Of a stretch of DNA of 64,000 nt, positions 3,629 to 45,540 are shown in pieces. A model generated the notes under the pieces. The model saw only the letters and a list, made by a program, of their open reading frames with translations, did not search any database and was not told the origin of the DNA. The DNA lies in the sequence record MW349128.1. The stretch is one strand, 5' to 3'. Both the position numbers and the translations under genes were made by a program. Every line of letters starts with the position of its first letter. Position 1 is the stretch's first letter. This DNA comes from Staphylococcus phage Machias.

Positions 3629-3646
3629 TAAATATATATTATTTTA
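3629..3646 (+). promoter_or_regulatory. promoter-like motif TAAATATATATTATTTTA followed by leader hairpin 3648..3679
   Basis: near-identical copies of TAAATATATATTATAAAA upstream of at least 7 other genes in this window. Confidence 0.4.
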
Positions 3647-3720
3647 TTGAGAATGAGTTATTATTAGACTTAATTCTCAAATATAAAATAAAAATTTTAA
3701 TTAAGAGGAGAGATTTGGAT

Positions 3721-5268
3721 ATGTCAGTAACAAAATACAGTGATGTAAAATTAGTAGCAAAATTAAACTTTGAGGCGGATAACTTGGTGAATATCATCGG
3801 ACACGGAGGAATCGGTAAGACTCAATTATTCAAAGAAATTGCTAGAGAAGAAAATATGAACTTCATTACTATTGCAGCTAACAACTTAAAAGAAGGTGAG
3901 CTTTCAATGCCAATGCTTTCACCTAAAGATAATGAAGTTGTATATGCTCCAATGGATAAAATTAAAGAAGCAAATAGACTTTATGAAGCTTATAAAGAAT
4001 ATCAAGCTAATGGTGGAGTTCAATATTCTCAAAGAGATTTAGCTAATATGAAATTAGATGAACTTAAAGAAATTTATAAAGATTTATCTAAAGAAGATAA
4101 TCTAGTTGAATATTATGAAGATACTCAAGAAAACTATGTGAACAAAGTATTTAACAAAGCTAAAGTTAAAAATGTTAAATATACTCATGCAGAATTAAGA
4201 AATAAATCTGTACCAGAATTAGAAGAAATCTTTAAAGAACTTACTGGTAAAGAACTAAAAGATAAATTAGGTAAAGGTTATTATATTAGTAAAGTATTAG
4301 AATTAATTCCTAGACCTTATACACTTCTATTTGTTGATGAAATTGCTCGTACAGATCAACAAGTACAATCTGAACTTATGAACTTCTTATTAGAACGTCA
4401 AGTTAATGGATATCATTTACCAGACAATGTTAAAATTGCTCTAGCACAAAATCCAAGTTCTGATATGCCTGGTTTTGAAGATACAGATTATTCTTCAACA
4501 TCTATGGATAATGCAGTATCTTCTCGTTTACTTCATATTCATATGGAACCAGATATGACTAGTTTCGTACAATATGCAACTCAATATAAACCAGATTCTG
4601 AAAAACAAAATATTCATCCTTCTGTATTAGAATTTATTACTGAAAAAGAAAGTTATGAATATTTATTCAATCCTAATAAAGAGGCGAATGTTGACTTTAA
4701 CGATACTAACCCTCGTTCTTGGGAAATGTTAAGTAATCTTGTATACACTATTGAAGATAGTGATTTATTAAAAACAGGAAGTCCAGAAGAAAATAGACGT
4801 AATAAACAAAAAGCATTACAGATTTCTGCAGAGGGTAAAATTAATATGTCTTTAGCTAATAAATTTACTAAATTCTATATTGATAATCAAGCTAAGCTTC
4901 CAAGACCTTCTGATATTCTATTTGAATATGATAGAGGAGTAATGACACCAAGAAAAGAATTATTGAAACAGCACATTGAAGTTATTGAAGGTCAATCTAC
5001 AATTCGTCAATTGACATTGAAAACTGCAATTATTAACTATCTTAAAAATAATCCAGATTTAATTGATGAGAAAGTTATTCAAGTTGCAGTAGAAGCTTTA
5101 TTATTAGGTAAAACTGAAACTAATGCTACATCAGTAAGATTAATTAGTAGATTATCTGAATCAACAGAAGATACAGATCAAATTCTATATGATAAATTTA
5201 CTGATAATGATTTATATAGTGAAGAAGCATTTAAACTATATGAAAAAATGACAGGTTCTTTAGGATAA
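3721..5268 (+). CDS. AAA+ ATPase (MoxR/AAA_5-like)
   Basis: Walker A GHGGIGKT, Walker B LLFVDEIAR; strong RBS aagaggagag before ATG at 3721 (ORF track gives upstream alternative start 3571). Confidence 0.6.
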   Translation: MSVTKYSDVKLVAKLNFEADNLVNIIGHGGIGKTQLFKEIAREENMNFITIAANNLKEGELSMPMLSPKDNEVVYAPMDKIKEANRLYEAYKEYQANGGVQYSQRDLANMKLDELKEIYKDLSKEDNLVEYYEDTQENYVNKVFNKAKVKNVKYTHAELRNKSVPELEEIFKELTGKELKDKLGKGYYISKVLELIPRPYTLLFVDEIARTDQQVQSELMNFLLERQVNGYHLPDNVKIALAQNPSSDMPGFEDTDYSSTSMDNAVSSRLLHIHMEPDMTSFVQYATQYKPDSEKQNIHPSVLEFITEKESYEYLFNPNKEANVDFNDTNPRSWEMLSNLVYTIEDSDLLKTGSPEENRRNKQKALQISAEGKINMSLANKFTKFYIDNQAKLPRPSDILFEYDRGVMTPRKELLKQHIEVIEGQSTIRQLTLKTAIINYLKNNPDLIDEKVIQVAVEALLLGKTETNATSVRLISRLSESTEDTDQILYDKFTDNDLYSEEAFKLYEKMTGSLG

Positions 5269-5273
5269 TATAA

Positions 5274-5306
5274 TAAAGATAATGGAGATTAGGTTCTCCA
5301 TTATCT
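5274..5306. terminator. terminator hairpin (GATAATGGAGA / TTAGGT loop / TCTCCATTATC) plus T-run
   Basis: inverted repeat directly after the stop of the ATPase gene. Confidence 0.6.
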
Positions 5307-5337
5307 TATTTATTTTTTTATTTATAAATATTAGGAG

Positions 5338-7281: not shown

Positions 7282-7289
7282 TATTAATT

Positions 7290-7330
7290 ATGTGGTAATG
7301 GGGATTAATTTCTCTATTACCACATATTAT
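7290..7330. terminator. terminator hairpin (ATGTGGTAAT ... ATTAATTT ... ATTACCACAT)
   Basis: inverted repeat after the stop at 7281; loop contains ATTAATTT. Confidence 0.55.
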
Positions 7331-9602: not shown

Positions 9603-9620
9603 TAAATATATATTATAAAA
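9603..9620 (+). promoter_or_regulatory. promoter-like motif TAAATATATATTATAAAA
   Basis: exact consensus copy; followed by hairpin 9633..9664 (TTAATTT loop), then the RBS of gene 9693. Confidence 0.45.
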
Positions 9621-9692
9621 ATGTAATAATTAGAGTGTAATATCATTAATTTGATATTACACTATTTTAATTTATAAGGAGATGAAATAGAT

Positions 9693-10937
9693 ATGGTAGA
9701 AGATTTATATGAAAATGATATATTTATCTTTGATTTAAAAAATAATGATTTAAATGAAGATGATAAATATATGGTTAATAAGTTTATTACAAATTTGTTC
9801 TATAGATATTCACTTGCAGAAGGTATAGATAATTTGAATATTTTAAATTCAAAAGAAGTAAAAATAAATGATAATATTAAGATTATCAAAATAAGAAATT
9901 TTAATAATTTAAAAAATGGTGACATATTAGCTTCATTAATATTAAATTATTACCATACTGAAAATTTAGATTTAAAAGAAATATTAAAGGATAATTTAAT
10001 TAAAGAAATAAATATGGAAGATAATTATTATATGAATAAAGATATAAATGTATTAATTAAATTTATGTATATCAGTAAATTTACTTATGATAATGATTTA
10101 AATGAAATTAATATTGATATAGATGAATATTTCTCTAACGAAACAGATATTGCATATATAGTTAAATTAATAAAAGATGAAGATATGAACTTCTTTAAAG
10201 AGAACACACATATAATGAGTTTAAAGTATATTAATGAAATAGGTATAACTCAATTATTTAATAAAATATTTTATACTAAATCTTTTAATAAAGATAAAGA
10301 AGAAAAATTTATTAAAACCGTAATTGATTATATTTATACTGGAACTAAAAATAAAACGTACAGTAATAAAATATTAATTATGAATGAGTTGTATGGTGTA
10401 TTTGGAAGAAAATATAAAAAACCTAGTAACGATATATTAAATTATATTGAAAATACAGTGGATAATATCATTAAGAATAAAGTTAAAGATAGTAAATATA
10501 AAGAATTTGATAAAAAGTATTTAATTGAAAGAATAAGAATTTTTAATAGAAATATAAAAGATATAGGTGTTTATAATAGAATAGATAATTATTTAAAATA
10601 TGATAAAGAAACTTACTTAGGTGATAATGATGATATAGTTAAAGCATTCTTTTTCAATAATTATCAATATGATAGTATTTTTCGTTTATGTGTAATATTT
10701 AAAAATAAATTACCTGAAAAGGAAAATGTTGAAGAATTCTTTATTAAATTATTAGATTTAATTAATAAAAATACAACTACAACAGAGAAGAAAAAACTTA
10801 TGAAAGATATTTTAAACCCTAGTTTTAATAATATTGATAAATTTAAATATAACGATCCAAGCTTTTTAGTTAGTAAATCTAAAGGAGAGCTTAAGAGAAT
10901 AATCATGCACAATACAGTTAAGAAAACATTTATTTAA
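9693..10937 (+). CDS. hypothetical protein (414 aa)
   Basis: ORF with RBS taaggagatg. Confidence 0.55.
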   Translation: MVEDLYENDIFIFDLKNNDLNEDDKYMVNKFITNLFYRYSLAEGIDNLNILNSKEVKINDNIKIIKIRNFNNLKNGDILASLILNYYHTENLDLKEILKDNLIKEINMEDNYYMNKDINVLIKFMYISKFTYDNDLNEINIDIDEYFSNETDIAYIVKLIKDEDMNFFKENTHIMSLKYINEIGITQLFNKIFYTKSFNKDKEEKFIKTVIDYIYTGTKNKTYSNKILIMNELYGVFGRKYKKPSNDILNYIENTVDNIIKNKVKDSKYKEFDKKYLIERIRIFNRNIKDIGVYNRIDNYLKYDKETYLGDNDDIVKAFFFNNYQYDSIFRLCVIFKNKLPEKENVEEFFIKLLDLINKNTTTTEKKKLMKDILNPSFNNIDKFKYNDPSFLVSKSKGELKRIIMHNTVKKTFI

Positions 10938-11946: not shown

Positions 11947-11954
11947 AATATATT

Positions 11955-11984
11955 CCCCTAATACTATTAATTTAGTATTAGGGG
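11955..11984. terminator. bidirectional terminator, conserved family (CCCCTAATACT / ATTAATTT / AGTATTAGGGG)
   Basis: perfect 11-bp stem between convergent genes; same stem/loop family at 26477, 47725, 59675, 61421. Confidence 0.75.
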
Positions 11985-11998
11985 AAAATTATTATTTT

Positions 11999-12406: not shown

Positions 12407-13409
12407 ATGACAACAGAATTAAAGAATAAAGAAGAAAGAAAAAGAGCTTTAACTGGATATTTAGAACAATTGGTATGGATGGTTCAAAAGAATAATCCTG
12501 ATTTTGATAAAGAAGAAATATTAAAAGAATGTAGAGAATTTGTAAAAGAAAATGTTAAACCTGTTATGACAGAGGTATCAGGTCAAGAAATGAATGTTGA
12601 TTCTTTATTACGTACAGTTATTAATTCAAATTTAATAGTAACTGGATCAGGTTCGATTTATCAAACACAATCACAAAGAAAAAATTTAAATGCAGAGATG
12701 TTAAAAGACTTCATTGATTCACGTAAAGTAGCTAAACATAATATGTTTATAAGTAAAGGTGTAGACGATGTTAAATATCATAAATATATGAATGAACAAA
12801 AAACAATTAAGATCTTGGCTAATAGTTACTATGGTGCTATGATACAAGGAAATAGTATTTTCTATGATCCTTATTCAGGACCTGCTATCACATATAGTGG
12901 TGTTGATATTGTTACGACTTCAGCAATAGCTTTAGAAAGATTTATAGGTAGTAAAATATTCTTTATGAATATTAGTGAGATTTATAATTATATCGTAAGA
13001 ATATGTCAAGAAGAATATAAAGATCATGATATTAAGATAAATTCAGTTCCTACTGATAATGAAATATTAAAAGGTTTATTGGATAACGTAGAATATAATT
13101 TCTCTGAAGATGAAGAAAATGATTTAAAAGAATTCTTTAGTAATTTAACTCAAGATGAGAAAAATAGAGTTTATTTTAAAAATAATCTTTATGGTTTATT
13201 AGATCACACTGATATATTTGATAATAAAATTAGTAAAATGACAGGTAGAGAAGATTTCTTAGATCCGAACGAACCACCTGAAGATATGATACCATTATTA
13301 GATGAATTATTTGATATATTAGAAGACTGGGTTATTTATAATTATCAAGATTACAATAGAATGTATAGAATGAATTATAAAAAACGTAGAAGTGTACTTA
13401 CAATCGATT
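12407..13409 (+). CDS. DNA polymerase family B, C-terminal subunit, exon 1 (motif B KILANSYYGAM, degenerate motif C region, KKRRSVL = KKRY motif)
   Basis: alignment to T4 gp43 (KxxxNSxYG, ...KKRYALNVWD); own strong RBS aggagg and ATG; exon ends at CGATT (13405..13409), which pairs with intron IGS GGTCG. Confidence 0.75.
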
Positions 13410-14050
13410 ATGATAACATGGTCGCTGCTTAAAGTAATTTAAGTTGATTCACATTATTAATTGCTGAGAAAGTATTTATTAAATTAATCAGCATCAATCA
13501 ATATGATTGTTCAACGACTAAATATAATGATACTCATAAAGAGTATATGATATAGTCTATTTTATATTTAAAAATATAATATTAAAGACAGATAGTAACT
13601 TCGTACATTTAGATCCATTATATCAAAAAATGAAAGAAAAGAAACCTGAAGATTTCCCTATTGCAGAAAATGGTTTAGAAGATAAATTAGAACAACGTGT
13701 AGGTAATATATCTATTATTAACTATCAAATTACTAAATTGCTAGAATTATCTTATCATAGATTCTGTAAAGATTTAGGATTAGAAGATGAACATTTAGGT
13801 GTTATATCTATGAAAAATGAGTATGTAAATGCTCCAGTATACAGTAATGTGTATTAGTAAATATTATTAATTGCTGAGACAAAATAAAATTAATCAGCAT
13901 CTTCAAATAATGAAGTTCAACGACTAAATATAATAATTCTTAATAATAAAGAATATGATATAGTCTAGTCTTATATTTAAAATATAAGTATAAACGTTTT
14001 ACTTGACAAACAGTTAACAACAGATAAAAAGAAAACTTATGCTTCATCAG
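13410..14050 (+). mobile_element. composite (twin/tandem) group I intron region: core A 13410..~13625, internal ORF 13630..13857, core B ~13825..14050
   Basis: two complete copies of P3-P4 (ATTAATTGCTGAG), P4'-P6 (AATCAGCATC..), J6/7-P7 (GTTCAACGACTAAAT), P8, P7' (GATATAGTCTA) and P9 hairpins; joining 13409 to 14051 restores ...KKRRSVLTID-L-IQQEGNLVQPPDLDVKGM, colinear with T4 ...KKRYALNVWDMEGTRYAEPKLKIMG. Confidence 0.6.
13630..13857 (+). other. 75-codon ORF between intron cores A and B: either an intron-borne ORF or an insertion exon of polB (unresolved)
   Basis: open frame with no SD sequence; does not align to the T4 gp43 KKRY-to-KIMG segment. Confidence 0.3.
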
Positions 14051-14697
14051 TAATTCAACAAGAGGGTAATTTAGTTCAACCACCAGACTTAGATGTTAAA
14101 GGTATGGCTATTAGAAAAGTTAATACTAATAAACGTATTAGAGAATTATTTACTGAAATATTACAAAAAGATATCTTAGAAAATAAAACTGGAATTGATA
14201 GAATTGGAATTATACGTAAATATAAAGAAATTGAAGAAATGATTAAAAAATCATTAGAGAATGGTGATATTGAATTCTTAAAACCTGGTAAAGCTAATAA
14301 CGCAGAAGTATATAAAGATCCTTATACACAAATGAATTATAGAGCAGCTTTATCATGGAATTTAATGTATCCAGATAAAGAAATATCTCTTCCAGCAAAT
14401 ATCTTAATGGTTAAATTAAATATTAAATCATTTGGAGATATTAAGGATAAAGTTGATGATGAAGAATTATTAGATAAATTTAGAGAAGTATTTAGAAACG
14501 AAAGATTAGTTAAAAATGGAATGAATGTAATTGCAGTTGAAGGTAATACAATTCCTGAAGAATTTAGACCTTTTATTGATTATGATTCAATGATAGAAGA
14601 TCATATTAAACCAGGTAAAGATATTATTGAATCTATTGGAGTTAAAGTGTTAGAATCTTCAAATAGTTCTTTCGTATCAAATATGGTTAAATTTTAA
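14051..14697 (+). CDS. DNA polymerase family B, C-terminal subunit, last exon (thumb region)
   Basis: in-frame continuation ...QQEGNLVQPPDLDVKGMAIRKVNTNK aligns to T4 MEGTRYAEPKLKIMGLETQKSSTPK; omega-G at 14050. Confidence 0.65.
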
Positions 14698-15224: not shown

Positions 15225-15283
15225 ATTGAAAAAATTTATTATTTTCATATAAAAATTCTTGCTTAATTTTTAATTTTATGTTA

Positions 15284-15300
15284 AAATATATATTATAAAA
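15284..15300 (+). promoter_or_regulatory. promoter-like motif AAATATATATTATAAAA
   Basis: consensus copy 60 nt upstream of gene 15362; followed by weak hairpin AGAATA..TATTCT. Confidence 0.45.
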
Positions 15301-15361
15301 ACGAGAATATGTCACTATTAAAATTAAACTTATTCTTAATAAATTTGGAGAGTGAAAAGAA

Positions 15362-17412: not shown

Positions 17413-17470
17413 AAATAATCCATGTTTGACAAATTCAAGTCAAACATGGATTTATTATAATTTTTTTTTT
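17413..17470. terminator. rho-independent terminator (AATCCATGTTTGAC / loop / GTCAAACATGGATT + T10)
   Basis: 14-bp perfect stem followed by a poly-T run. Confidence 0.75.
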
Positions 17471-17805: not shown

Positions 17806-18957
17806 ATGAAAGTAGATATGATAGATATTGAACAAGTCATAACTGATACAAATGCTAAAGAAGTAACCAATCCTGTATTTTTCGATTCAGGTATACTACC
17901 AAAAGAAGATGGTTTATTTTCATATGATATATTTGGTTTAATAGGTACTCCTGAAAGAAAAACCAATTTAGGTTGGATTAATTTAAAGGATAAATACCTT
18001 AATCCGGTGGCTTATAAAGCATTAAAAGATTTAGATAAAAATATTGAACTATGTATTCAGGGTTCAGAGTATTTTAAAGTAGAAAAAGGTCAATTAGTTC
18101 CTTCAGAAGATGGAGATACTGGACTGAATTTCTTATATGAAGTATTTGATGATTTAAAATTTAGAAAGAATGATTCTCGTATTAGATCTGAAAAAATTGA
18201 TATGATTAAAAATACAGATAAGCAAAAAATATTTGTAGATAAATGGCTAGTAATACCTGCTTTTTATAGAGACTTTAATCCTAATGAAACTTCAGGAGAA
18301 ATTCAAGATACTGAAGAAGTTAATAATATGTATTCTTCTATTATACGTTCTGTAGATGCTATTAGTTTTAATTCTTTTGGTTTTATTGCTAACAGTACTA
18401 AATATAATATACAAAATACATTATTTGAAATATATCAGAAATTTACTTCAGGAGAATTATCAGGTAAAACTGGTTTTATGCAAAAACGTATATTGGGTAA
18501 AACAGTAGATAATAGTACTCGTGCAGTTATTTCTTCACCTAAAATTAATTCGAATAGATGGGATGAAATGCAGATAGAGTTTGGTGAGTTAGGTGTACCA
18601 TTAACTCAATTAGTTACCTTATTTTTACCATTCTTTAATAAGTATATAATTGATTTTATTGAACTTCATAAAGATGCTTTCCAAACAGCTACTGGAAATG
18701 ATGAGAAAGAATTATCATTAGAAGAAGTGTATGAACAATTCGATGATAAATCTATTAAGAATATGCTAGAATTCTTTATTAAAGATCCTAATGAAAGATT
18801 TAGTCCTATATATGTAAATGATAGAGAAGGTAAACGCCATAAAGTTAAATTATTTGAAAAAACTTTGGGTAGAGATTTTACTGTAATTGATTTACTTTAT
18901 ATTGCTGCAACCGAAATAGTAGAAGATAAGCATGTTATGTATTCAAGATATCCGATT
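17806..18957 (+). CDS. multisubunit RNA polymerase beta-prime-like subunit, N-terminal half, exon 1
   Basis: PKEDGLFSYDIFG ~ E. coli KPERDGLFCARIFGP; GKTGFMQKRILGKTVDNSTRAVIS ~ [23 protein letters not shown]; exon ends MYSRYPI (NRAPTLH region) at CGATT 18953..18957. Confidence 0.75.
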
Positions 18958-19152
18958 AATAAAATGGTCGCTGCTTAAAGTGATTTAAGTTGATAAACAT
19001 TGTTAATTGCTGAAATACTATTAATAAAGTTAATCAGCATCAATTAAATATAATTGTTCAACGACTAAATGCAATGATACTATTTAATAGTATATAATAT
19101 AGTCTAATTTATATAATACTTATATAAATATAATAAATGCGAAAATTTCTTG
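18958..19152 (+). mobile_element. group I intron C (compact, no ORF)
   Basis: first 31 nt identical to intron A (ATGGTCGCTGCTTAAAGTRATTTAAGTTGAT, IGS GGTCG); cores TTAATTGCTGAAA / AATCAGCATC / GTTCAACGACTAAATGC / ATATAGTCTA; 3' end approximate. Confidence 0.65.
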
Positions 19153-19341
19153 AACGTAGCACCTGCTAAAATTAAAATATTAACTACTGTTGATACTATT
19201 CCAGAAATAATTTTAGATGATATAGTATTAAAAGATTACCCTAAAGTAGTAAGAGAGTATCCTGTTGATGAAGATATTTTCTTAGATACTGCAATCATAC
19301 ACAATTCATATGCTCAAGCACTTGGTGCAGATTTTGATGGC
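19153..19341 (+). CDS. RNAP beta-prime N-half, exon 2 (ends ...AQALGADFDG = first part of the NADFDGD catalytic motif)
   Basis: in-frame segment ending GADFDG immediately before intron D; start boundary uncertain (ORF track 19150..19365 reads through into the intron). Confidence 0.5.
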
Positions 19342-19491
19342 AAAATTTTATATTACCATCATTAAATAATATTAATTGCTGGAAAATCTAATAAGATAAT
19401 CAGCATCAACTTAATAAAAGTTGTTCAACGACTAAATATATTACTAAAGAAGATATAGTCTAATTATATGTAAATACATGTATATAAAATG
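19342..19491 (+). mobile_element. group I intron D (compact, no ORF)
   Basis: ATTAATTGCTGGAAAA / AATCAGCATCAAC / GTTCAACGACTAAATAT / GATATAGTCTAATT; omega-G at 19491. Confidence 0.65.
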
Positions 19492-19865: not shown

Positions 19866-19883
19866 TAAATATATATTATAAAA
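19866..19883 (+). promoter_or_regulatory. promoter-like motif TAAATATATATTATAAAA upstream of the paralogue array
   Basis: exact consensus copy 30 nt upstream of the RBS of gene 19913. Confidence 0.45.
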
Positions 19884-19912
19884 TAGAAGTATATTAAAAT
19901 ACAAAAGGAGAA

Positions 19913-22417: not shown

Positions 22418-22436
22418 TAAATATATATTATAAAAA
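22418..22436 (+). promoter_or_regulatory. promoter-like motif TAAATATATATTATAAAAA inside the paralogue array
   Basis: consensus copy abutting ORF 22444 with no SD (real start probably 22504, which has RBS gaggag). Confidence 0.4.
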
Positions 22437-22503
22437 TGAGATAATGAATCTAACAGAGTTCATTATCTCTAATAATATCTTAAATAGAGGAGATGAAGTT
22501 AAT

Positions 22504-26453: not shown

Positions 26454-26472
26454 TAAATATATATTATAAAAA
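26454..26472 (+). promoter_or_regulatory. promoter-like motif TAAATATATATTATAAAAA
   Basis: consensus copy immediately upstream of hairpin 26477..26506 and gene 26532. Confidence 0.45.
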
Positions 26473-26476
26473 CGTT

Positions 26477-26506
26477 ATCCCAATACTATTAAATTAGTAT
26501 TGGGAT
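26477..26506. terminator. conserved-family hairpin (ATCCCAATACT / ATTAAATT / AGTATTGGGAT)
   Basis: member of the CCCAATAC stem family; sits between the promoter motif and an RBS, so it may be a 5'-leader structure as well as a terminator. Confidence 0.65.
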
Positions 26507-32695: not shown

Positions 32696-32707
32696 TTAAT
32701 CAAACAT

Positions 32708-32745
32708 GCCAAACGATTCTAATCGAGTCGTTTGGCATTATATTT
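32708..32745. terminator. rho-independent terminator (ATGCCAAACGAT / loop / GTCGTTTGGCAT + T-run)
   Basis: 12-bp GC-containing stem followed by TTATATTTTT. Confidence 0.75.
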
Positions 32746-34070: not shown

Positions 34071-34360
34071 TCCCTGAACCAGGAATGGCTGAAATTAATA
34101 TTATAACTGTAGTTGATTGGAGTAAACGTAAATGTTTAACATTTGCATTAAAATATGATACAGATAATTATAATGAAGTTATGACAGATAAAACTAAATT
34201 AATGGAAGATCTAAATAATATTTATAATAATAAAGATAGCGAGATTGGAGAAGATTTAGGTTTAGAATTTGAAATATATGAATTAGATACTGAAATGGAA
34301 ATTATTAAATCATTCTTATACTATATTAATGAAATTAGTAAGCCTGATATATGTACGGCT
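34071..34360 (+). CDS. DNA polymerase family B, N-terminal subunit, exon 2 (ends ...KPDICTA before Exo II)
   Basis: PEPGMAEINIITVVDWSKRKCLTFAL ~ T4 PDPMKAEYEIDAITHYDSIDDRFYVFDL; the exon end ACGGCT pairs with intron IGS GGTCGT. Confidence 0.7.
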
Positions 34361-35447
34361 TGAGAAACACACTGGGTCGTGTAAAACCTTTTTAATTGCT
34401 GGAACGTCCTTATTGCTTAGTGAGCTACAACGTGACTGGTAACGGTGAGCGTGATATGCTTAAAAATCATTAAGATTGGATAATCAGCAGCGAAGACTCT
34501 ATAAATCCTTTTCAAGAAAGGATGATTAATATGAATTATAAACCGAAAAATAAAAAGAAAATAACCAATGAAGATTGGAAAGAAATTGTCAAAGAATTAG
34601 GTAATGATGAATATGAAGTATTAGGAGATTACCTGGGTACAAAAAACAAAATTGAAATGAAACATAAAATATGTGGAGAGACATTTTTTATGACACCAAA
34701 TAATTTTAAAATAAGTGAAAATCGTTGTCCTATCTGTTCTATAAAGAAAGTTTCAGAAAAACGTAGGAAGAAGACAAAGGAATTAAATGAAAAAATAAAA
34801 GAAGTTCTTGATGATTCTTATGAATTTAAATTGAACGGTAATGAAACTGTTCATAATAAAATAAAAGTAAAACATAAACAATGTGGAAACGAATACAGTG
34901 TTTTAATAAGACATATAATTTATGATAAAAATAAATGTAGTAAATGTCAAGATTTTGTTAATTCAAGAGATGAAAAAGAAATAAATAAATTCCTTATAGA
35001 AATGGGCGTAGATTTCGAAAGACAATATAAATTTGAAGATGACAAAGTAAAAAATCTTAGATTTGACTTTGCAGTTTTTAAAAATAACGAAATCAAACTT
35101 ATAGAATTTGATGGTGAATTTCATTTTAAAGAAAAATTTGGTGGACCAAAAGCATTTGAGAAAGTAGTATACAATGACTATCTCAAAAATAAATTTTGTT
35201 TTGACAATAACATAAAATTACTTAGAATACCTTATTGGGAAAGTAATAATAAAAAAGAAATAATAAAAAGGTTTATAGAGTAACGTTCAACGACTATCGA
35301 AAAGTGAGCATTATGTCGAGAGGACCTATTGCAATATAACTGAGTAGAGTACACTTTTAATTAAGTGGAAAAAGAAGGGTATGTAGAGTAACGTCTATAT
35401 ACAAGATATAGTCTATCTTTCAATAAAATATATTTTATTGAAATTTG
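34361..35447 (+). mobile_element. group I intron G carrying a homing endonuclease ORF between P6 and P7
   Basis: P1 pairing ACGGCU/GGUCGU; TTAATTGCTGGAACG ... TAATCAGCAGC; after the ORF come GTTCAACGACTATCG ... AGATATAGTCTATC and a P9 hairpin; omega-G at 35447 immediately before TGG AAT (WN of Exo II). Confidence 0.7.
34522..35283 (+). CDS. intron-encoded homing endonuclease, tandem Zn-finger-like DNA-binding modules plus Vsr/PD-(D/E)xK-like (DUF559-like) nuclease domain
   Basis: two HKxCGxxF...NxxxxxRCPICS / KCSKC repeats; C-terminal LRFDFAVFKNNEIKLIEFDGEFH; homologous to ORF 63260..64000(-). Confidence 0.55.
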   Translation: MINMNYKPKNKKKITNEDWKEIVKELGNDEYEVLGDYLGTKNKIEMKHKICGETFFMTPNNFKISENRCPICSIKKVSEKRRKKTKELNEKIKEVLDDSYEFKLNGNETVHNKIKVKHKQCGNEYSVLIRHIIYDKNKCSKCQDFVNSRDEKEINKFLIEMGVDFERQYKFEDDKVKNLRFDFAVFKNNEIKLIEFDGEFHFKEKFGGPKAFEKVVYNDYLKNKFCFDNNIKLLRIPYWESNNKKEIIKRFIE

Positions 35448-36389
35448 TGGAATCTAGATTTTGACTTTGCAACTATATTTGAAAGAATTAAAGTTAATGG
35501 AGAAGATCCAGCTGATTATTTCTGTTCTAAAGATTTACAAGATAAAAAAGCTTATTATAGATTAGATAAAAACGCTACAGATGCAGCTAATAGATCATCT
35601 ACGTTCGAAACTAACTCATACACTAACTGGATTGACCAATTAGCTTTATATGCAAATGTAAATAAACCAAATGGTGTTATGGAATCAGTTAAGTTAAATG
35701 ATGTTGGTGAAAAAGAAACTGGTATTAAGAAAGATGTATATGAAGGATCTATCTCTGATTTACATTTTAGAGATTATTATACATTCATTCTTTATAACAT
35801 TAAAGATACTGTATTAACTGCTTTAATAGAAAAGAACACTAATATGTTTGATTTATTATTCTCTATTGTAGATATGACTAGAACTAGACCAAGTAAAGCA
35901 CTTAAGAAAACTATTTGTTTAAGAAATCGTAGTTCTGTCTTCTTTGAAAATCAAGGATATGTATTAAGTAATAATCACTCTAAAATACTATCTGATCCAA
36001 ATGCAGATAAAATACGTGGTGGATTTGTAGCTAATATGACATTAATAGAACGTATGGGTGATATTTTAGTTAAAGGTAGAGATATTAGATCTAATAGATT
36101 ATTTAGTAATGTTTGTGACTTTGACTTGAGTTCACTATATCCTTCTATTATTAGAGGATTTAATATAACACCTGAAGGGCATATAGGTAAAATTCAAATA
36201 CAAGATAAATCTACAATGACAGTTCCTAAGTATGAAGAAGACAAATTAAATTACGACTTTAATACTGAATTTATTAGTAAATTTAACAGTCAAGATAGTG
36301 TAGCATTTGCTCAAGAATTTCATGGTTTACCTCCATTGAATATTGCAGCTAAGAAAGTATCTGATAAAATAAAAAGTAAAGGAGCTTAA
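35448..36389 (+). CDS. DNA polymerase family B, N-terminal subunit, exon 3 (Exo II WNLDFDF, Exo III YNIKDTV, motif A [12 protein letters not shown]); the polypeptide ends 70 aa after motif A
   Basis: colinear with T4 gp43 GWNVESF / YNIIAVY / [23 protein letters not shown]; stop at 36389 with no intron signature after it. Confidence 0.8.
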   Translation, partial: [313 protein letters not shown]

Positions 36390-37203: not shown

Positions 37204-39687
37204 ATGAAATGGAATTTGGCTGAAGAAAATAATAAAATAAATAATTCTTTTAATAATTTAGATAAAGACATTATTAAAAGTTTAGATCCTGAAGAAAATC
37301 CTAAAATACTAGGAAATAGTATTAACGATTTTAATAAAAGATTACCTAATATAAGAAGAAAAACTAGTCATAGAGATGAAAATGGTGGAGATTTATTATC
37401 TTTAGGTGCTAAAGTTACTGCCAAAGAAATGAGTAACAGTAGAAAGAATAAAACTGTATCTAAAGATGAGAGACAAAACTTTGTTAATGATTTTATTAAA
37501 GAGAATATAGATGATCAAGATTTTAGTACTGAAGTAGCTAGAATATCTAGATATGACGATTATCGTATTATAGATAAATTTATACCAGAAATTTCTGCTA
37601 GTATAGATGTATTCTCAACTTCAATTATAGCTCCTGATGATACTAGTAAGTTATCATTAATGTATAGATATAAATCTGACATTAATGAAAATAATGAAGA
37701 GAATAGAAAAGTTAAAAGAGAATTAGATCGTATTGTAGAAAAATACGATTTAAATAAATTAATATATCCTTCAGTAAGAGAAGGACTAATGTTAGGTGAT
37801 CTTTTCTATATTATTAAAGATACTAGAAAAGATTTTGAAGAAATACTTACTGAGAACGATGATGTTTTAGGTAGAGAAAGTTCTTCTGTTGATGATGCTA
37901 AAGTTATTAATGAATCATTTTTAGATGAAGAAATTAATAATGAAGACTTGGATATTTTGCTTAAGGAATTAAATAATCATATTGATGAAGGATCAATATA
38001 TAAAGATGAAAAGAATGTTAAATTACAAAAAGAAAATTTTAAAAATGAGATTCTTAAGAGTATTAATGAAAATGTAGAATTCTTTAAAAATTCTTCTGAA
38101 TTGCTTTCTGATGTTGGTAAATATAAAGGATCAAATGACCTTCAATCTTTCTTAGATAAAGCTCAAGGAAGTAACAGAGATAAAAAGATTAAAAGTGGAA
38201 CTACATACTTCCGTAATGTAAATCCTGAAGATATGATTAAATTAGAAGTTGATGGTTTATGTATTGGTTATCTTTATATTGAACCTGATTCTGGTACTGA
38301 TATTAGAGGAGGAGCAAATCCTTTATTAAGTGCTATGAACGGTATTATGGGAGATGGATATCAAAAACAATCCCAAATGGGTTCTATGCCAAATGGAATG
38401 GGAATAACTAATTTAGATCCTGTTACAGGTAATTCAGCTACAGGAGGAACAACTACTAATTCTAAAAATCCAAATGCTGGAATGAATGCTACATCAGGTT
38501 CTTACTTTGAAAATGGTAATACATTGATGGCTTATCAAGGTCTTGTAGACGTAATGGTTAAAGGTATCGCTCAAAAAATCGATATGGATTTTGTAAATAA
38601 AAATGATTCTTTTAAAGATGTTATATATCGTTTAATACGTAAAAATTATATTATTGAAAATGGTATTAAATTGACATACTTAGAACCTGAAGAAGTTGTA
38701 CATCATAAACTTGATAGTCAAAAGACATATGGAGTTTCAAGATTATATAAATCATTATTCTTTGCTAAATTATATTTAAGTACATTAATTACTACTATGA
38801 TGGTTAAAATAAATCAGTCAAGAGACAGACGTGTATTTAGAGTTAAATCTGGATTAGATGATGATTATGAAGGTACTGTAGAAGAAGTTATCCGTAATGT
38901 AAGATCTAGTGAAATGTCTTCTGGTATGTTTGGAGATGGAACATCAGTTCAAACAATGTTTAACCAAGTAGGTAATTTAGAGAACATGTACATTCCTGAG
39001 AATAAAGATGGTAATACACCTTTAGAAATAGATACCATTTCAGGTATTCAAATTGATATTAATGATGAATTCTTAGAATGGCTTAAGAAATCCGTTATTT
39101 CAGGTACAGGAGTACCTTTAAATTATATTGATTCTGAAGCTGAAACTGATTATGCAAGATCATTAGCAATGCAAAATAATGGATTTGTAAGAAAAGTAGT
39201 TAACTATCAAAATTCATTTGGAGATTTCTTTACTAAAGTATTAAGACGTTTATATTATTTAGAAAATAAAGAAACTAATAATGACAAAGATTATGAAGAA
39301 CTATTAGGAACTGTATCAGAAATAGAAGCATATTTCCCACCACCAGTATTTTTAAATTTAGGTAATTTAAATGAAGAAGTTGGTGCAGTAACACAAATGT
39401 TAGATTTCTTAGTTCCTTTATATACTCCAGAAACTGAAGACGAGACTGAAAATGATAAACTTAAGAGATTATTTAGGAAAGAATTAGTAACACAAGAATT
39501 TATGTCTAATTTATCTTATGATAGATTTGAAAATATTATTGAAAATGTTAAAAAAGATATAGAAAAAGATAATAAAGAAGATGAATTATCGAAAAAATCT
39601 GGCGATGATTCATTTGGTTCTGATGACAATGCAGGCGATGATTCATTTGGTTCTGATGATAATTCAGATGATAATAGTGATTTTTAA
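37204..39687 (+). CDS. large hypothetical protein (827 aa) with G/N/T-rich low-complexity core and C-terminal GDDSFGSDDN tandem repeat
   Basis: RBS aaaggagatg; repeated GDDSFGSDDN x2 at the C-terminus. Confidence 0.55.
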   Translation: MKWNLAEENNKINNSFNNLDKDIIKSLDPEENPKILGNSINDFNKRLPNIRRKTSHRDENGGDLLSLGAKVTAKEMSNSRKNKTVSKDERQNFVNDFIKENIDDQDFSTEVARISRYDDYRIIDKFIPEISASIDVFSTSIIAPDDTSKLSLMYRYKSDINENNEENRKVKRELDRIVEKYDLNKLIYPSVREGLMLGDLFYIIKDTRKDFEEILTENDDVLGRESSSVDDAKVINESFLDEEINNEDLDILLKELNNHIDEGSIYKDEKNVKLQKENFKNEILKSINENVEFFKNSSELLSDVGKYKGSNDLQSFLDKAQGSNRDKKIKSGTTYFRNVNPEDMIKLEVDGLCIGYLYIEPDSGTDIRGGANPLLSAMNGIMGDGYQKQSQMGSMPNGMGITNLDPVTGNSATGGTTTNSKNPNAGMNATSGSYFENGNTLMAYQGLVDVMVKGIAQKIDMDFVNKNDSFKDVIYRLIRKNYIIENGIKLTYLEPEEVVHHKLDSQKTYGVSRLYKSLFFAKLYLSTLITTMMVKINQSRDRRVFRVKSGLDDDYEGTVEEVIRNVRSSEMSSGMFGDGTSVQTMFNQVGNLENMYIPENKDGNTPLEIDTISGIQIDINDEFLEWLKKSVISGTGVPLNYIDSEAETDYARSLAMQNNGFVRKVVNYQNSFGDFFTKVLRRLYYLENKETNNDKDYEELLGTVSEIEAYFPPPVFLNLGNLNEEVGAVTQMLDFLVPLYTPETEDETENDKLKRLFRKELVTQEFMSNLSYDRFENIIENVKKDIEKDNKEDELSKKSGDDSFGSDDNAGDDSFGSDDNSDDNSDF

Positions 39688-39731
39688 GATATAAAAATAA
39701 TTGAATAATGGTTTATTACAAATCATTATTC

Positions 39732-39749
39732 AATTATATATTATAAACA
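39732..39749 (+). promoter_or_regulatory. promoter-like motif AATTATATATTATAAACA
   Basis: close match to the consensus, 45 nt upstream of the beta-prime C-half gene. Confidence 0.4.
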
Positions 39750-39793
39750 TGTAACAATATTTGATTTATTTATACTTAAGGAGAGATTAGGAT

Positions 39794-41710
39794 ATGAGTG
39801 AAGAAAAGTTAGTTTTGGATTTAAAATTGGGTAAATATAATAATTATTTACATTCAGATAATTATTATGAAATAATAGAAGAATTAAAGCAGGATATTAT
39901 TAATAACCCTAAAGATAGAATGAATGACTATTTTGAAGATAATATTTCTAAAAGTAATTATTTAACATTATTAATTTTAGGAAAACCTTTTAGAGAAATG
40001 AATAAGAAATTTACAGAAGAGTATTTAGTTAATCCAACTAATATTAATGAATACTATGATTATTTTGATAAAATTGTAGTGAACTTTATTAAAGAAGGAC
40101 ATGATCCTATTAAAATCAGTCAATCAATAGCTTATATCATTGATGAACTTACTATATTCTCAAATGAATATATTCTTCCTGTAGATGGACCTTCTATATC
40201 TTTATATGATATTATGAGATTAGCTAATGAAGATAAAGAAATTGAAAGATTAATTAATTTTGATAATGATGATATTGATCCTAATTTAACTTATCAACAA
40301 ATTATTAATGAAGTTCAAAAACCTAATATGGATAATCTTATTAAACATATTAAGATGGATAAAGAAAATGATTATAAAACTTTCTTAGAGTCAGGAACAG
40401 GTATAAATAAAATACAATTGAATGAGGTATTAAGTTTTGTAGGATTTAAACCTGATATTCGTGGAGATGTTGTTACTGATATTATTGATACTTCATTTAT
40501 GCGTGGATTAAAGAATACAACTCAATTTGCTATTGATGCAGAATCTTCTTTAAATGCATTAATGAACTCTAAGAATAAAGTTAGAGAATCAGGATACTTA
40601 AACCGTAAGATTACATTATTAACTTCAGATTTAAAACTATCAGATAATCATGATTGTGGTAGTAAGCATTTACTTTACTTTAATGTAGATAGTCAAGAAA
40701 AACTAGATCGTATTAATGATAGATATTATTATGATGATAACGATCAAGAATTTAAATTAATTGATAGTAGAAATGATGTTCATTTAATAGGGCAAATTGT
40801 ACCATTAAGATCTCCTATAACATGTGCTGAACCAAATGGTAAAATATGTCAAATGTGTTATGGAAGAAGACTATATGATATTAATAGAAATTTAGCAGTA
40901 GGTATCATAGCTACATTACAGTTAACAGAACCTATGACACAGAAATTACTTTCAACAAAGCATCTTCAAGCTGTTCAACTTTCTGAATTCTCATGGTCAG
41001 ATATATTTAATGAACACTTTGAATTCTCTGGTGATAATATTATTCCTCGTGATGAGAAAACTAAAGTTATTATAGATGATATGATTATTAATGAAGATAT
41101 TGATTATGGAAAATATAAAGCTAAATCATTTAAATTTAAAATAGGTACTAAAGTACATGAAGTTAAATCACCTGTTATTCTTAGAATACCGGATCAGAAA
41201 TTTGATTCAATTGAAAAATTCTACAATGAAGATGAAAATGCTTATGTATTTAATATGAAAGATTTAGGAGAGAATTTCTTATTTAATATTAAAATTAAAA
41301 ATGAAGGTGTCGCAGATCCACTTCTAAAAATTCGTTCTATATTAGAAAGAAGTAATTTTATTAAGAATGATTATGAAGAAAAAGATTATCAAAGAATGTT
41401 TAATGATGTAATGGATCTATTATTAAAATCAGGTACAGATGTTATGTCAGTTCATGTTGAGACTATTATTCGTAATATGGTATTCTTAAATGATACTATA
41501 TATAAAGATAGAGTGAAATATAAAGATCCTGACTTTAATCCTAAAATTACTTTACGTAATGTAGGTAACTCTATATTAAATTCACCTTCACCAGTACATT
41601 CATTGATATTTGAAAATGTTCGTGCTCAGCTTACTACAGATGAAACTAATGGATTCTTCAGTAAAGATGATGAATCTATGTTCGATCCGTTATTTGATTT
41701 TGATATTTAA
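39794..41710 (+). CDS. multisubunit RNA polymerase beta-prime-like subunit, C-terminal half (bridge-helix / trigger-loop region)
   Basis: [27 protein letters not shown] ~ E. coli [52 protein letters not shown] ~ [46 protein letters not shown]...[22 protein letters not shown] ~ [21 protein letters not shown]...[21 protein letters not shown]. Confidence 0.75.
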   Translation: [638 protein letters not shown]

Positions 41711-41721: not shown

Positions 41722-41751
41722 ACCAAACTCTAATTAACTTTAGAGTTTGGT
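41722..41751. terminator. terminator hairpin (ACCAAACTCTA / ATTAACTT / TAGAGTTTGGT)
   Basis: 11-bp stem after the beta-prime C-half stop; loop of the ATTAAYTT family; followed by a TATATTATATAAAAA promoter-like element at 41751..41765. Confidence 0.65.
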
Positions 41752-44173: not shown

Positions 44174-44193
44174 AGAAAGGTAGTTGAGGTATT

Positions 44194-44907
44194 GTGACAC
44201 GTATATCTCGTAAAGAGGCAATTGATAATTATCAATACCTCAACGAATTATTTATAAATGTAAGAAGAGATATTAATAAATTTCTATCAGATGAGATATT
44301 TAAAATTAATCATACTAGTTTTAAATCATCTATTATTAAAAATATTAAATCTAATTTTGATATAGTTGAAAATAAGAATAATATATCCCTTTTAATCTTA
44401 AACAAATTTATTGAATTTGATATTTACGAAGGTATTATATTCTTATATGACTTAGAAGAGAATATTGAATTTTTAAAAGAATCAATTAATAATCAAATAA
44501 ATATATTAGAAAATAAAATAGACACTAGAAAAAATACTATCGAAATTATGAATAGAAATAATAAAAAATATAATAGAGAATTAGAAGATAAGAATAATGA
44601 ATTAATTGAAAAAATTAAACTAGGTTCTTTATCTAATGCATTATTAAATCTAGTAGGTATGGATAATTCATTTAAAATTAAAAAAGAAATAAATGAATTA
44701 AAAGAGAGAATCTATAGTAATGAAGAGTTATTAGATAAGAATAATAAAGAATTAAACTCACTTCAAAAAGAAAAAGATACAATTAGTAAATATGACTTCA
44801 GATTTGCTAATAAAGATTTCATTATCAATAAGATAAATGGTTTCTTACAGTATTTTAGAAATGAATATGGTTTTGAATTTTACATTAAATATGAAGGTAG
44901 GTTATAA
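44194..44907 (+). CDS. hypothetical coiled-coil protein (237 aa)
   Basis: ORF with RBS aaaggtagttgagg; GTG start. Confidence 0.5.
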   Translation: MTRISRKEAIDNYQYLNELFINVRRDINKFLSDEIFKINHTSFKSSIIKNIKSNFDIVENKNNISLLILNKFIEFDIYEGIIFLYDLEENIEFLKESINNQINILENKIDTRKNTIEIMNRNNKKYNRELEDKNNELIEKIKLGSLSNALLNLVGMDNSFKIKKEINELKERIYSNEELLDKNNKELNSLQKEKDTISKYDFRFANKDFIINKINGFLQYFRNEYGFEFYIKYEGRL

Positions 44908-44909
44908 GA

Positions 44910-45515
44910 TTGATAGAATTTGAAGAAAAATTGCCAGCGTTAAATATAATAGTTTCTGCAGTAACTACTTCACCTAAAACTAATACTGAATTTATCAATA
45001 TGACATTTATGGTAGATAGTCCTAAATTTAAAGACTTGTATTTAGAATTCTCAGATATAGATCTAAATGAAGTATTTAAAAATGAAATGCTTAAGGATGC
45101 ATATGAAAAAGGTCAATTGTCTGAATATACTAAGATTGATAAAACGTTAGATGATTATAACTTGAGATTAATTAAAGATGATACAGTTATTCAAGTTCAA
45201 CGTATTAGAGATTATTTTGAAGGTCTTTCTGAATATGCAGATAAATTAGTTTTCTGGATAGATGAAATAACTTTATGGAGTCAATTAATTGAATTGGTAT
45301 ACGGTGGATCTTCAGATAACACTTATGAATTTCCTTCATATATTGATTTCCAACCTATTGATGTGAAATCAGTAGTAAGAATGTCTAGTATTAAAGATGG
45401 TGATTATTCTTATGCAGAAGAATTAATGGGAACAAATGAATCTATGACTGATTCCTCATTATCAATTGCATCATTATTATTGTCATTCATTAAGAAAGCA
45501 AAAATTTTAGATTAA
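44910..45515 (+). CDS. hypothetical protein (201 aa)
   Basis: translationally coupled ORF (TTG start). Confidence 0.5.
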   Translation: MIEFEEKLPALNIIVSAVTTSPKTNTEFINMTFMVDSPKFKDLYLEFSDIDLNEVFKNEMLKDAYEKGQLSEYTKIDKTLDDYNLRLIKDDTVIQVQRIRDYFEGLSEYADKLVFWIDEITLWSQLIELVYGGSSDNTYEFPSYIDFQPIDVKSVVRMSSIKDGDYSYAEELMGTNESMTDSSLSIASLLLSFIKKAKILD

Positions 45516-45520
45516 AAATT

Positions 45521-45540
45521 TAAATATATATTATATAAAA
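45521..45540 (+). promoter_or_regulatory. promoter-like motif TAAATATATATTATATAAAA
   Basis: consensus copy 40 nt upstream of gene 45581. Confidence 0.45.

Follow-up and report, generated by a model that had tools for sequence, protein, structure and literature searches.

The element that recurs along the 64,000-nucleotide stretch of phage DNA analysed here (the window) is very probably the early promoter of a virion-packaged multisubunit RNA polymerase (RNAP), as judged from its counterpart in phage AR9, and roughly two in three predicted early mRNAs of the staphylococcal clade open with a stem-loop that, on folding and comparative evidence, appears in all likelihood to be a selected RNA structure. 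We consider the account as a whole, in which a virion-RNAP early promoter is followed by a stabilising 5′ hairpin acting at the RNA level, to be highly likely; the stabilising role, taken by itself, is tentative. While the transcription starts of AR9 have been mapped, those of the staphylococcal phages are predicted from sequence, and by analogy with AR9 we infer use of the virion RNAP, initiation at a conserved G and early timing. The promoter reading is supported yet not new, because the AR9 consensus has been mapped and the motif has already been predicted in phage MarsHill.

The repeated element and the AR9 early promoter

The window, 98.5% identical to PB50, derives from a Staphylococcus jumbo phage of the PB50/AH12 type, a lineage other than that of MarsHill within the same clade. 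It contains no tRNAs, and Rfam gave no match at the gathering threshold over the whole window. The virion RNAP beta-prime gene fragments (Table 1) are presumed to be part of the enzyme that reads the motif. The non-virion RNAP beta-prime C-terminal gene at 39794–41710 (+) matched Pfam RNA_pol_Rpb1_5 (Rpb1 domain 5), and the gene after promoter P1, which starts at 3721, gave Pfam AAA and PHROG ATPase matches.

The earlier note had listed near-identical 17–18-mers at eight positions, and all of them are present, as seven exact copies of AAATATATATTAT-N6-G and one copy with a single mismatch. The 18-mer at up to one mismatch occurs in six copies against 0.07 expected, on the + strand only, whereas at up to three mismatches it gave 14 matches in the window against 9.8 expected. 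Because the latter is chance level, the definition was changed to the 13-mer followed by N6 and G, of which there are seven exact copies in the window (0.01 expected), all seven on the + strand and all seven intergenic. The eighth copy, at 39732, has the core AATTATATATTAT and keeps the G; it precedes the non-virion RNAP beta-prime gene, and the same functional variant is the annotated early promoter of AR9 g001. The remaining one-mismatch 13-mers, an intragenic one at 43176 and a near-palindrome at 35426 that is also read on the minus strand (35435), lack the G, as do intragenic look-alikes. The G lies exactly 6 nt past the 13-mer at all eight window sites and at all orthologous sites compared, the orthologous-site scan having been filtered for G at this place; in an unfiltered scan of the relatives, A replaces it in a few exact copies that are intergenic. 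Locally the consensus reads TT-AAATATATATTAT-AAaAAT-G, and a start codon on the + strand with a Shine-Dalgarno sequence lies 27–72 nt downstream of every copy. The sites were compared with those of five relatives of ~78% nucleotide identity (MarsHill, S6, SA1, LY01 and DC4). All eight positions recur across these phages, seven of them with the motif in MarsHill itself, and the core is 98% identical as against 70–83% for the flanks. The PB50 genome holds 36 plausible promoter sites.

Table 1. Predicted promoters, leader hairpins and neighbouring features of the window
Feature	Position	Strand	Details
P1 promoter	3629..3649	+	T-20, core 3630-3642, spacer TTTATT, predicted start G 3649; exact AR9 consensus
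P1 5′-terminal leader hairpin	3649..3678	+	paired from +1; MFE -9.2 kcal/mol, z -3.5
P2 promoter	9603..9623	+	core 9604-9616, predicted start G 9623; precedes gene 9693-10937
P2 leader hairpin	9634..9663	+	12 bp, from +12, tail ATTTTAATTT; MFE -15.2 kcal/mol, z -6.0
P3 promoter	15283..15303	+	core 15284-15296, predicted start G 15303; precedes gene 15362-16672
Virion RNAP beta-prime gene fragments	17806..19365	+	PB50 and MarsHill annotations of orthologous region
P4 promoter	19866..19886	+	core 19867-19879, predicted start G 19886; head of paralogue array
P5 promoter	22418..22438	+	core 22419-22431, predicted start G 22438; within paralogue array
P5 5′-terminal leader hairpin	22438..22469	+	12 bp from +1; MFE -14.0 kcal/mol, z -4.2
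Coding region after P5	22504..23145	+	ATG 22504, 11 nt past Shine-Dalgarno AGAGGAG; PB50, S6, SA1 comparison
P6 promoter	26454..26474	+	core 26455-26467, predicted start G 26474; precedes gene 26532-27311
P6 leader hairpin	26477..26506	+	12 bp, from +4; MFE -16.9 kcal/mol, z -5.7
P7 promoter	39731..39751	+	variant core AATTATATATTAT 39732-39744, predicted start G 39751; precedes 39794-41710
Terminator-like hairpin after RNAP gene	41722..41751	+	conserved with compensatory changes; terminator scan flag
P8 promoter	45521..45541	+	core 45522-45534, predicted start G 45541; precedes gene 45581-46786
Virion RNAP beta subunit gene fragment	61459..62220	-	PB50 annotation
Exact AAATATATATTAT-N6-G copies	3630, 9604, 15284, 19867, 22419, 26455, 45522	+	window scan

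In AR9, dRNA-seq and primer extension at 41 start sites gave the early promoter consensus AAATATATATTAT-(6N)-G+1, which the virion RNAP reads, and early transcription there is insensitive to chloramphenicol (Lavysh et al., 2017, PMC5312081). The element of the window agrees with this consensus exactly in its 13-mer, 6-nt spacer and G, so that the likeness to phiKZ/AR9-type virion RNAP early promoters that the earlier note had suggested turned out to be identity with an experimentally defined element. In both phages the sites fall between genes and share their orientation, and early promoters precede an AAA-ATPase gene and non-virion RNAP genes. Unlike in AR9, the flanks are also conserved in the window (T at -20/-21 and the spacer AAaAAT). 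Promoters of the phiKZ family resemble the present ones in depending on an injected multisubunit virion RNAP, in having an AT-rich conserved element ~10 nt upstream and in starting 6 nt after that element, but they differ in consensus and host range, and phiKZ-type promoters also conserve the -20 and -30 regions. For MarsHill, a MEME-based prediction places the motif ahead of 29 genes, and the same study found no late promoter motif (Korn et al., bioRxiv 10.1101/2020.12.14.422802). As a separate observation, the AR9 late motif AACA-N6-TA is enriched ahead of virion and lysis genes, which points to conservation of both RNAP specificities between Bacillus and Staphylococcus phages.

The gene context agrees with the earlier remark that all copies lie upstream of + strand genes, among them the beta-prime C-half gene and the paralogue array; the promoters are intergenic and co-oriented with downstream early-type genes, including the non-virion RNAP subunit gene and genes of the array. 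By analogy with AR9, transcription would start at the G that the 6-nt spacer separates from the 13-mer, and the promoters would drive rightward early operons comprising the AAA ATPase cluster, genes of unknown function, the paralogue array and the non-virion RNAP subunit gene. The position of P1, which serves the AAA-ATPase gene, is conserved in all five relatives. AR9 has an annotated early promoter for g028–g029 too, a pair made up of an AAA-family ATPase gene and a vWA-domain gene behind it; the pair is a candidate parallel to the genes behind P1.

Two other readings of the element itself were weighed. In a genome of ~23–25% GC, where the 18-mer with three mismatches occurs at chance level, the copies could be chance AT-rich low-complexity matches or mobile-repeat remnants with no promoter role, and when IMG/VR viral contigs were scanned with the 20-position pattern, the matches listed were mostly single chance matches. 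This reading is effectively refuted by seven exact 20-position matches where 0.01 are expected, together with copies that are intergenic, co-oriented with genes and conserved in position across phages while their flanks diverge. Very improbable, too, is a strong host sigma-A promoter, that is, a -10 box in an AT-rich setting used by S. aureus RNAP. Its geometry does fit, since TATTAT lies at -12 to -7 when counted from the conserved G, and T at -35 and A at -30 are weakly conserved; however, at least 13 invariant positions extend well beyond a -10 hexamer, the 36 aligned sites show no TTGACA-like -35 signal 16–18 bp ahead of the -10 (G at -33 in 2/36, C at -31 in 0/36), and the window has no more sigma-70-like sites than chance would give. 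Moreover, the motif is common to phages of Bacillus, Staphylococcus and Listeria, and in AR9, where it is identical, it needs no new protein synthesis to be active and has been assigned to the virion RNAP (PMC5312081).

Stem-loops at the 5′ ends of predicted early transcripts

Hairpins had been remarked on after 3629, 9603 and 26454, and these three are real (P1, P2 and P6 in Table 1). The remark that a leader hairpin often follows the element was correct as far as it went, and it understated the case, since a fourth hairpin after 22418 was missed and the association is clade-wide, with stems at or near +1. In the window, four of the eight leaders fold at or below -9 kcal/mol, as against 1.3% of background 40-mers, and their hairpins begin at +1, +1, +4 and +12 relative to the predicted start. 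Over the PB50 genome, 23 of 36 leaders fold at or below -6 kcal/mol (background, 8%); pairing sets in at +1 in 16 of these 23 and by +4 in 21. Extension of the PB50 stems outward is at chance level. The stems end precisely at the conserved G, so that the hairpins independently confirm, from sequence only, the predicted start. The sense fold is more stable than the antisense fold in 27 of 29 cases, and G.U pairs make up 29 of 324 pairs in sense folds versus 3 of 281 in antisense folds. Two inverted-repeat families recur, GAGRTAATGA..TCATTAYCTC and GAAGAAAGA..TCTTTCT.

The individual leaders are diverse. The P1 hairpin, which folds to only -3.3 on the antisense strand, keeps 8/8 counted pairs in four lineages, with an A-U pair swapped to U-A and a U-A pair changed to U.G; the covariation of its orthologues amounts to one compensatory pair, which 134 of 500 shuffles matched or exceeded, with only four sequences available. 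Covariation was found in the family of the P5 hairpin, in which 100% of cells are paired, both sides change in 5 of 12 pairs and the score was exceeded by 0 of 500 shuffles, and in the leader of P6 (C-G to U-A in SA1, U-A to C-G in PB50). At P2, the orthologous leaders of MarsHill, S6, LY01 and SA1 bear different hairpins that begin at +1. The P3 leader has only a weak hairpin (15303–15337, -4.0), with strong ones at this site in MarsHill, LY01 and SA1, and P8 lacks a stable hairpin in this phage, with an AU-only hairpin in MarsHill, SA1 and DC4. The P4 leader is short and without a hairpin; the start codon of its gene is likely TTG 19922, and the PB50 orthologous CDS annotation gives the equivalent start. 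At P7, where relatives carry AAATTTATATTAT at the same position, there is no leader hairpin. A stable hairpin is thus missing at three or four of the eight window promoters. None of 17 sampled AR9 early leaders folds at or below -6 kcal/mol, and hairpins are also absent from three LPJP1 sites and from nine predicted late leaders. Because it is missing at some window promoters and at all those sampled in AR9 and LPJP1, the hairpin is dispensable for promoter function. The 17 AR9 leaders are unstructured and mostly ~25–45 nt long, a few exceeding 100 nt, whereas staphylococcal leaders are ~45–70 nt and about two thirds of them hairpin-headed, the hairpin counts across phages not being independent because they include orthologues and paralogues. 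A hairpin-headed early mRNA of the clade would be laid out as a stem-loop of ~8–15 bp usually from +1, an A/U-rich spacer of 15–25 nt, a Shine-Dalgarno sequence and a start codon at about +45 to +70.

The P5 leader also bears on the proposal of the earlier note that transcription from this site would be leaderless, starting translation at ATG 22444. This ATG is base-paired in the 5′ arm of the 12-bp P5 hairpin, downstream of the predicted start G at 22438, and in PB50, S6 and SA1 the equivalent ATG is read for two codons before a stop (ATG AAT TAA). The orthologues begin at an ATG ~10–11 nt past a Shine-Dalgarno sequence of GGAG type, and this ATG has its counterpart in ATG 22504 of the window. 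The open reading frame from 22444 is therefore rejected as an in-frame artefact, the real start being ATG 22504 behind the conserved Shine-Dalgarno sequence, and the leaderless transcript falls with it. The partial copy proposed at 41751 did not hold up either. The octamer TATATTAT, the invariant 3′ part of the AAATATATATTAT consensus that is matched in the window, is present there, but the match has five mismatches in its upstream half, shows A where the start G would be and is not conserved in the relatives; it is the T/A-rich tail of the conserved terminator hairpin. With the promoter map, early operons can be annotated and two ORF starts corrected (22504 and 3721).

Inverted repeats just downstream of a start could also be terminators or attenuators, or could act in DNA. 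As terminators, they would end the upstream operon, or stop early transcripts to leave short RNAs derived from the 5′ UTR, in the way that 201phi2-1 makes eight small RNAs by premature 5′ UTR termination (PMC11512511). The P2 hairpin meets terminator-like criteria, some inter-gene terminators resemble leader hairpins in sequence (11953–11986 and 26477–26506; 5276–5307 and 22438–22469), and termination signals of phage RNAPs may differ from the T-rich-tail criteria applied. Nevertheless, P2 has the only one of the four strong window leader hairpins that was flagged on the + strand by the criterion of a G+C stem followed by a U-rich tract, and the P6 hairpin was not flagged as a + strand terminator. 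T-rich tails follow just 4 of 23 PB50 leader hairpins, which is the background rate; 16 of 23 stems start exactly at the predicted +1, for which a terminator has no reason; and some hairpins lie in divergent regions without a co-directional upstream gene (3649–3678, and PB50 3312, 192268 and 201331). As its intergenic region is divergent, the P1 hairpin cannot end the transcript of an upstream gene. Generic terminators are rejected for most leader hairpins by the +1 onset and the background rate of T-rich tails, and the terminator or attenuator reading is unlikely overall. Action in DNA, either as operators at which a dimeric phage repressor would switch off early genes or as extruded hairpins that aid the polymerase, is quite improbable. 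The repeats do overlap +1 to +30, a classic operator position, and recur in two sequence families. In coliphage N4, a phage RNAP is likewise injected and a hairpin is tied to early promoters: the N4 virion RNAP is a single-subunit enzyme that recognises a DNA hairpin. That hairpin, however, lies upstream of the start, whereas the present ones are downstream, variable, RNA-level and dispensable. The strand asymmetry described above (29 sense versus 3 antisense G.U pairs and the more stable sense folds) is unexpected for sites in duplex DNA and therefore disfavours an operator or cruciform. Stems and loop lengths, too, vary widely among promoters, orthologous leaders can bear unrelated hairpins, and AR9 promoters function without any hairpin.

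Possible role of the leader hairpins

If the hairpins are selected RNA structures, a 5′-terminal stem would act in RNA, denying a single-stranded 5′ end to RppH and to 5′-end-dependent decay of the RNase J type and so stabilising early messages. RppH of B. subtilis requires at least two unpaired 5′ nucleotides, and 5′-terminal stem-loops that stabilise mRNA have been described for ompA and papA of E. coli and for the aprE leader of B. subtilis (reviewed in PMC3997798). The hairpins considered here resemble these stabilisers in that the stem begins at the 5′ end or a few nucleotides from it, has no sequence requirement, acts at the RNA level and precedes a strong Shine-Dalgarno sequence, and differ from them in being a candidate trait of one whole promoter class and not of single genes. 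On the strength of this analogy, a role as mRNA stabiliser or 5′-end protector is the likeliest of those considered, and we put it forward tentatively. Held with the same reserve, the stem-loop at +1 may be a class-wide selected trait of staphylococcal AR9-like early transcripts that shields them from RppH/RNase J-type decay, or otherwise marks them, in the first minutes of infection. We found no relevant report of hairpins in virion-RNAP early transcripts in searchable papers, from which the subscription literature may differ, and the MarsHill paper mentions neither hairpins, stem-loops, leaders nor terminators (Korn et al., bioRxiv 10.1101/2020.12.14.422802).

The promoter by itself adds little, being the AR9 signal, already predicted in MarsHill and here extended to the PB50/AH12 lineage; the useful part is its association with hairpins. 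This association suggests that these phages build mRNA protection into their early leaders, an idea that can be tested in S. aureus and that is relevant to engineering expression from therapeutic jumbo phages. If the class-wide hairpin is true, promoter class and the 5′ architecture of the mRNA would be coupled, which is undescribed for jumbo phages in searchable papers.

Identity and conservation of the early-promoter element

The earlier note had described a recurrent AT-rich 17-18-mer upstream of plus-strand genes of the window, which has a GC content of 23-25% and is transcribed almost wholly rightward in its left 47 kb. With up to three mismatches allowed, the 18-mer gave 14 matches against 9.8 expected, which is chance level, while six copies versus 0.07 expected were found with at most one mismatch. 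The informative core is AAATATATATTAT-N6-G, and its seven exact copies (0.01 expected), all intergenic and on the plus strand, confirmed the element as real and sharpened its definition. A variant copy keeps the G, and the remaining one-mismatch 13-mers in the window lack it. One of them, a near-palindrome, lies directly upstream of a TTG start at 35445 and was taken as a chance match.

From 41 mapped early start sites of Bacillus phage AR9, Lavysh et al. obtained the consensus AAATATATATTAT-(6N)-G+1; the early transcripts build up under chloramphenicol and were attributed to the injected virion RNAP (PMC5312081). The window motif has the same 13-mer, the same spacing and the same start base, and the variant at 39732 also occurs in AR9, as the annotated early promoter of g001. 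By analogy, the injected virion RNAP would transcribe from the G early in infection.

A 4.5-kb probe (37204-41710 of the window) was 98.5% identical to vB_StaM_PB50, 96.8% to AH12 and approximately 78% to S6, PALS_2, MarsHill, Madawaska, DC4, LY01 and SA1; uracil reportedly replaces thymine in S6 and presumably in MarsHill-like phages. All eight window sites were found again at orthologous positions across five relatives (MarsHill, S6, DC4, LY01 and SA1; four to six phages per site), with 98% identity in the 13-mer, 80% in the 20 nt upstream, 83% in the spacer and only 70% from +2 to +21. The reassembled PB50 genome contains 36 plausible sites, whose alignment gave the consensus TT-AAATATATATTAT-AAaAAT-G and no -35 hexamer; sigma-70-like sites occur in the window at chance frequency. 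The promoter-like element is conserved and identical to the mapped virion-RNAP promoter. The motif is already known for the staphylococcal clade, and the promoter has in effect been reported for sister phages, although the MarsHill GenBank record annotates zero promoters. Listeria phage LPJP1 also has exact copies, and the promoter specificity appears common to AR9-like phages of three Firmicute genera. In this Listeria grayi jumbo phage, exact or near-exact AAATATATATTAT-N6-G was observed at 19217, 29106 and 7746(-).

Genes behind the promoters and neighboring signals

Downstream of the early promoters lie an AAA ATPase gene, the C-terminal part of the non-virion RNAP beta-prime (Pfam Rpb1 domain 5 match), genes of a divergent paralogue array and several proteins without a family match. 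AR9 g028, also an AAA-family ATPase, has an annotated early promoter as well, a likeness at the level of the gene family. The longest ATPase ORF starts at ATG 3571, upstream of its own promoter (extra segment 3571-3720); the true start is 3721, past the leader hairpin and the Shine-Dalgarno GAGGAGAG, and the PB50 annotation agrees. The array (19922-29734) comprises fourteen consecutive ORFs of 136-286 aa, among which conservation is limited to short stretches (18-89 aa; E-values of 1e-3 to 2e-7 in blastp); they are highly diverged paralogues, divided into three early transcription units by the predicted promoters P4, P5 and P6. The genes for DNA polymerase, virion RNAP beta-prime and polymerase-exonuclease are each in several ORFs. 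Relatives annotate these split regions as containing introns or inteins, and an Rfam search of them in the window found no group I intron at gathering score. At PB50 205657(-) (locus L135), tRNA-like TAGCTCAGTTGGTAGAGCA comes no more than 20 nt after an early-promoter match, AAACATATATTAT-N6-G; an early promoter may serve a tRNA gene here.

The AR9 late motif AACA-N6-TA lies no more than 60 nt ahead of a start codon at nine places in the window versus 1.3 expected (binomial P ~6e-6), mostly in front of virion and lysis genes on the minus strand (baseplate wedge, lysin and amidase). Late promoters were not found by MEME in Korn et al. The match at 17443, within a terminator hairpin, may be due to chance.

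Features of the window and of phage PB50
Feature	Position	Strand	Remarks
Exact AAATATATATTAT-N6-G	3630, 9604, 15284, 19867, 22419, 26455, 45522	+	All intergenic
Variant AATTATATATTAT	39732	+	One mismatch to core; G kept
One-mismatch 13-mer	43176		Intragenic; without G
One-mismatch look-alike AAATATATTTTAT	35426-35438	Both	Near-palindrome; without G
Leader hairpin	3649-3678	+	-9.2 kcal/mol, z -3.5
Leader hairpin	9634-9663	+	-15.2 kcal/mol, z -6.0
Weak leader hairpin	15303-15337	+	-4.0 kcal/mol
Leader hairpin	22438-22469	+	-14.0 kcal/mol, z -4.2
Leader hairpin	26477-26506	+	-16.9 kcal/mol, z -5.7
AAA ATPase gene	3721-5268	+	Downstream of early promoter
Split-gene regions	12407-14697, 17509-19637, 32814-36389		HNH/homing endonuclease genes between ORFs
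Terminator-like hairpins	5276-5307, 7289-7326, 11953-11986, 17417-17452, 19804-19834, 32706-32738, 41722-41751
AACA-N6-TA	3579, 51173, 52238, 58636, 61412, 62687	-
AACA-N6-TA	17443, 14057, 10925	+
PB50 hairpin families	95923, 103110, 125275, 140214, 251146; and 74276, 83617, 84957, 126314		Loci L131-L135, L001, L006

Stem-loops at the 5' ends of predicted early transcripts

When each of the eight predicted transcripts was folded from +1 to +45, four leaders gave a strong hairpin, one a weak hairpin and three none. Among background 40-mers from the window, only 1.3% reached -9 kcal/mol and 8% reached -6 kcal/mol, a value attained by 29 of 40 distinct staphylococcal leaders and 23 of 36 PB50 leaders; the leader hairpin is clade-wide. 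The first paired base was the predicted +1 in 16 of the 23 PB50 hairpins and lay no further than +4 in 21, and outward extension of the stems past +1 did not exceed the AT-rich chance level, which is support for the assigned start site that does not depend on AR9. The hairpins are specific to one strand: for 27 of the 29, the sense fold was better than the antisense fold (Wilcoxon p = 1e-5, the cases not being independent), and G.U pairs made up 29/324 in sense versus 3/281 in antisense.

The window's 22438 hairpin belongs to the GAGRTAATGA..TCATTAYCTC family, in which all 96 cells were paired, 5 of 12 pairs showed both-sided changes, and the covariation score was reached by none of 500 shuffles. 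In leader F (that of P6), C-G is replaced by U-A in SA1 and U-A by C-G in PB50, and leader A (P1) kept all counted pairs in four sequences, too few for significance. Leaders B and C (P2 and P3) have unrelated hairpins at the same place in different lineages, which points to selection on structure rather than sequence. Most of the predicted early transcripts have a selected RNA stem-loop at their extreme 5' end. At least two sequence families recur among the PB50 leader hairpins, that named above and GAAGAAAGA..TCTTTCT; either duplication of early genes took their promoter-leader cassettes along, or the stems bear sequence-specific information.

Two further readings in the earlier note did not hold. 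ATG 22444, proposed as a leaderless start, falls within the 5' arm of a 12-bp hairpin, the predicted transcript start being G 22438. In PB50, S6 and SA1, AAT TAA comes directly after this ATG, and their proteins begin approximately 10-11 nt after a GGAG-type Shine-Dalgarno; the window equivalent is AGAGGAG-N11-ATG at 22504, and the long ORF from 22444 owes its existence solely to a loop difference that abolishes the stop codon. A hairpin 3' of the RNAP gene (41722-41751) has a T/A-rich tail, and this tail is the supposed partial motif copy at 41751; the hairpin is kept with compensatory changes in all relatives, but TATATTAT is not conserved.

Possible roles of the leader hairpins

The leader hairpins match no Rfam family. 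They are not generic terminators: a T-rich tail follows only 4 of the 23, which is background, several lie in divergent regions without a co-directional gene upstream, and 9634-9663 alone among the window's leader hairpins was flagged terminator-like on the plus strand. Nor is the hairpin an inherent part of the promoter: none of 17 annotated AR9 early leaders reached -6 kcal/mol (mean, -1.3), and no stable 5' hairpin was present at the three LPJP1 sites. A general trait of the phage's leaders was also rejected, since nine predicted late leaders were unstructured.

Terminator-like hairpins themselves are strongly enriched (13 versus 1.4 and 9 versus 2.0 expected in two 20-kb scans). Those at 11953 (TTCCCCTAATACTA..TAGTATTAGGGGAA) and 5276 (AAGATAATGGAGA) resemble leaders 26477 and 22438, respectively, and this likeness suggests that hairpin modules are shared or duplicated between terminators and leaders. 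A hairpin at 39703-39731, GAATAATG..CATTATTC, adjoins P7 upstream; its counterpart in MarsHill, S6, LY01 and DC4, GAATAACG..CGTTATTC, is a compensatory change, and it is probably the portal gene terminator set directly before an early promoter.

A single-stranded 5' end is where RNase J1 acts, and the hairpin would leave no 5' nucleotides in that state. According to a review (PMC3997798), RppH of B. subtilis requires at least two unpaired 5' nucleotides; the reference list of the review includes studies of mRNA 5'-terminal stem-loops and stabilisers in E. coli and B. subtilis. On these grounds, protection of early mRNA would be the most economical function, which we propose tentatively. Alternatively, the hairpin could act in attenuation yielding short leader RNAs, as in 201phi2-1, as a protein-binding site or as a site of RNase III processing. 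The early 5' ends of AR9 respond poorly to TEX treatment (PMC5312081), for which 5' structure was rejected as the cause because AR9 leaders are unstructured. The jumbo-phage RNAP review and the papers on the AR9 transcriptome and on MarsHill make no mention of a hairpin placed systematically at the 5' terminus, and it may be a new, if modest, finding.
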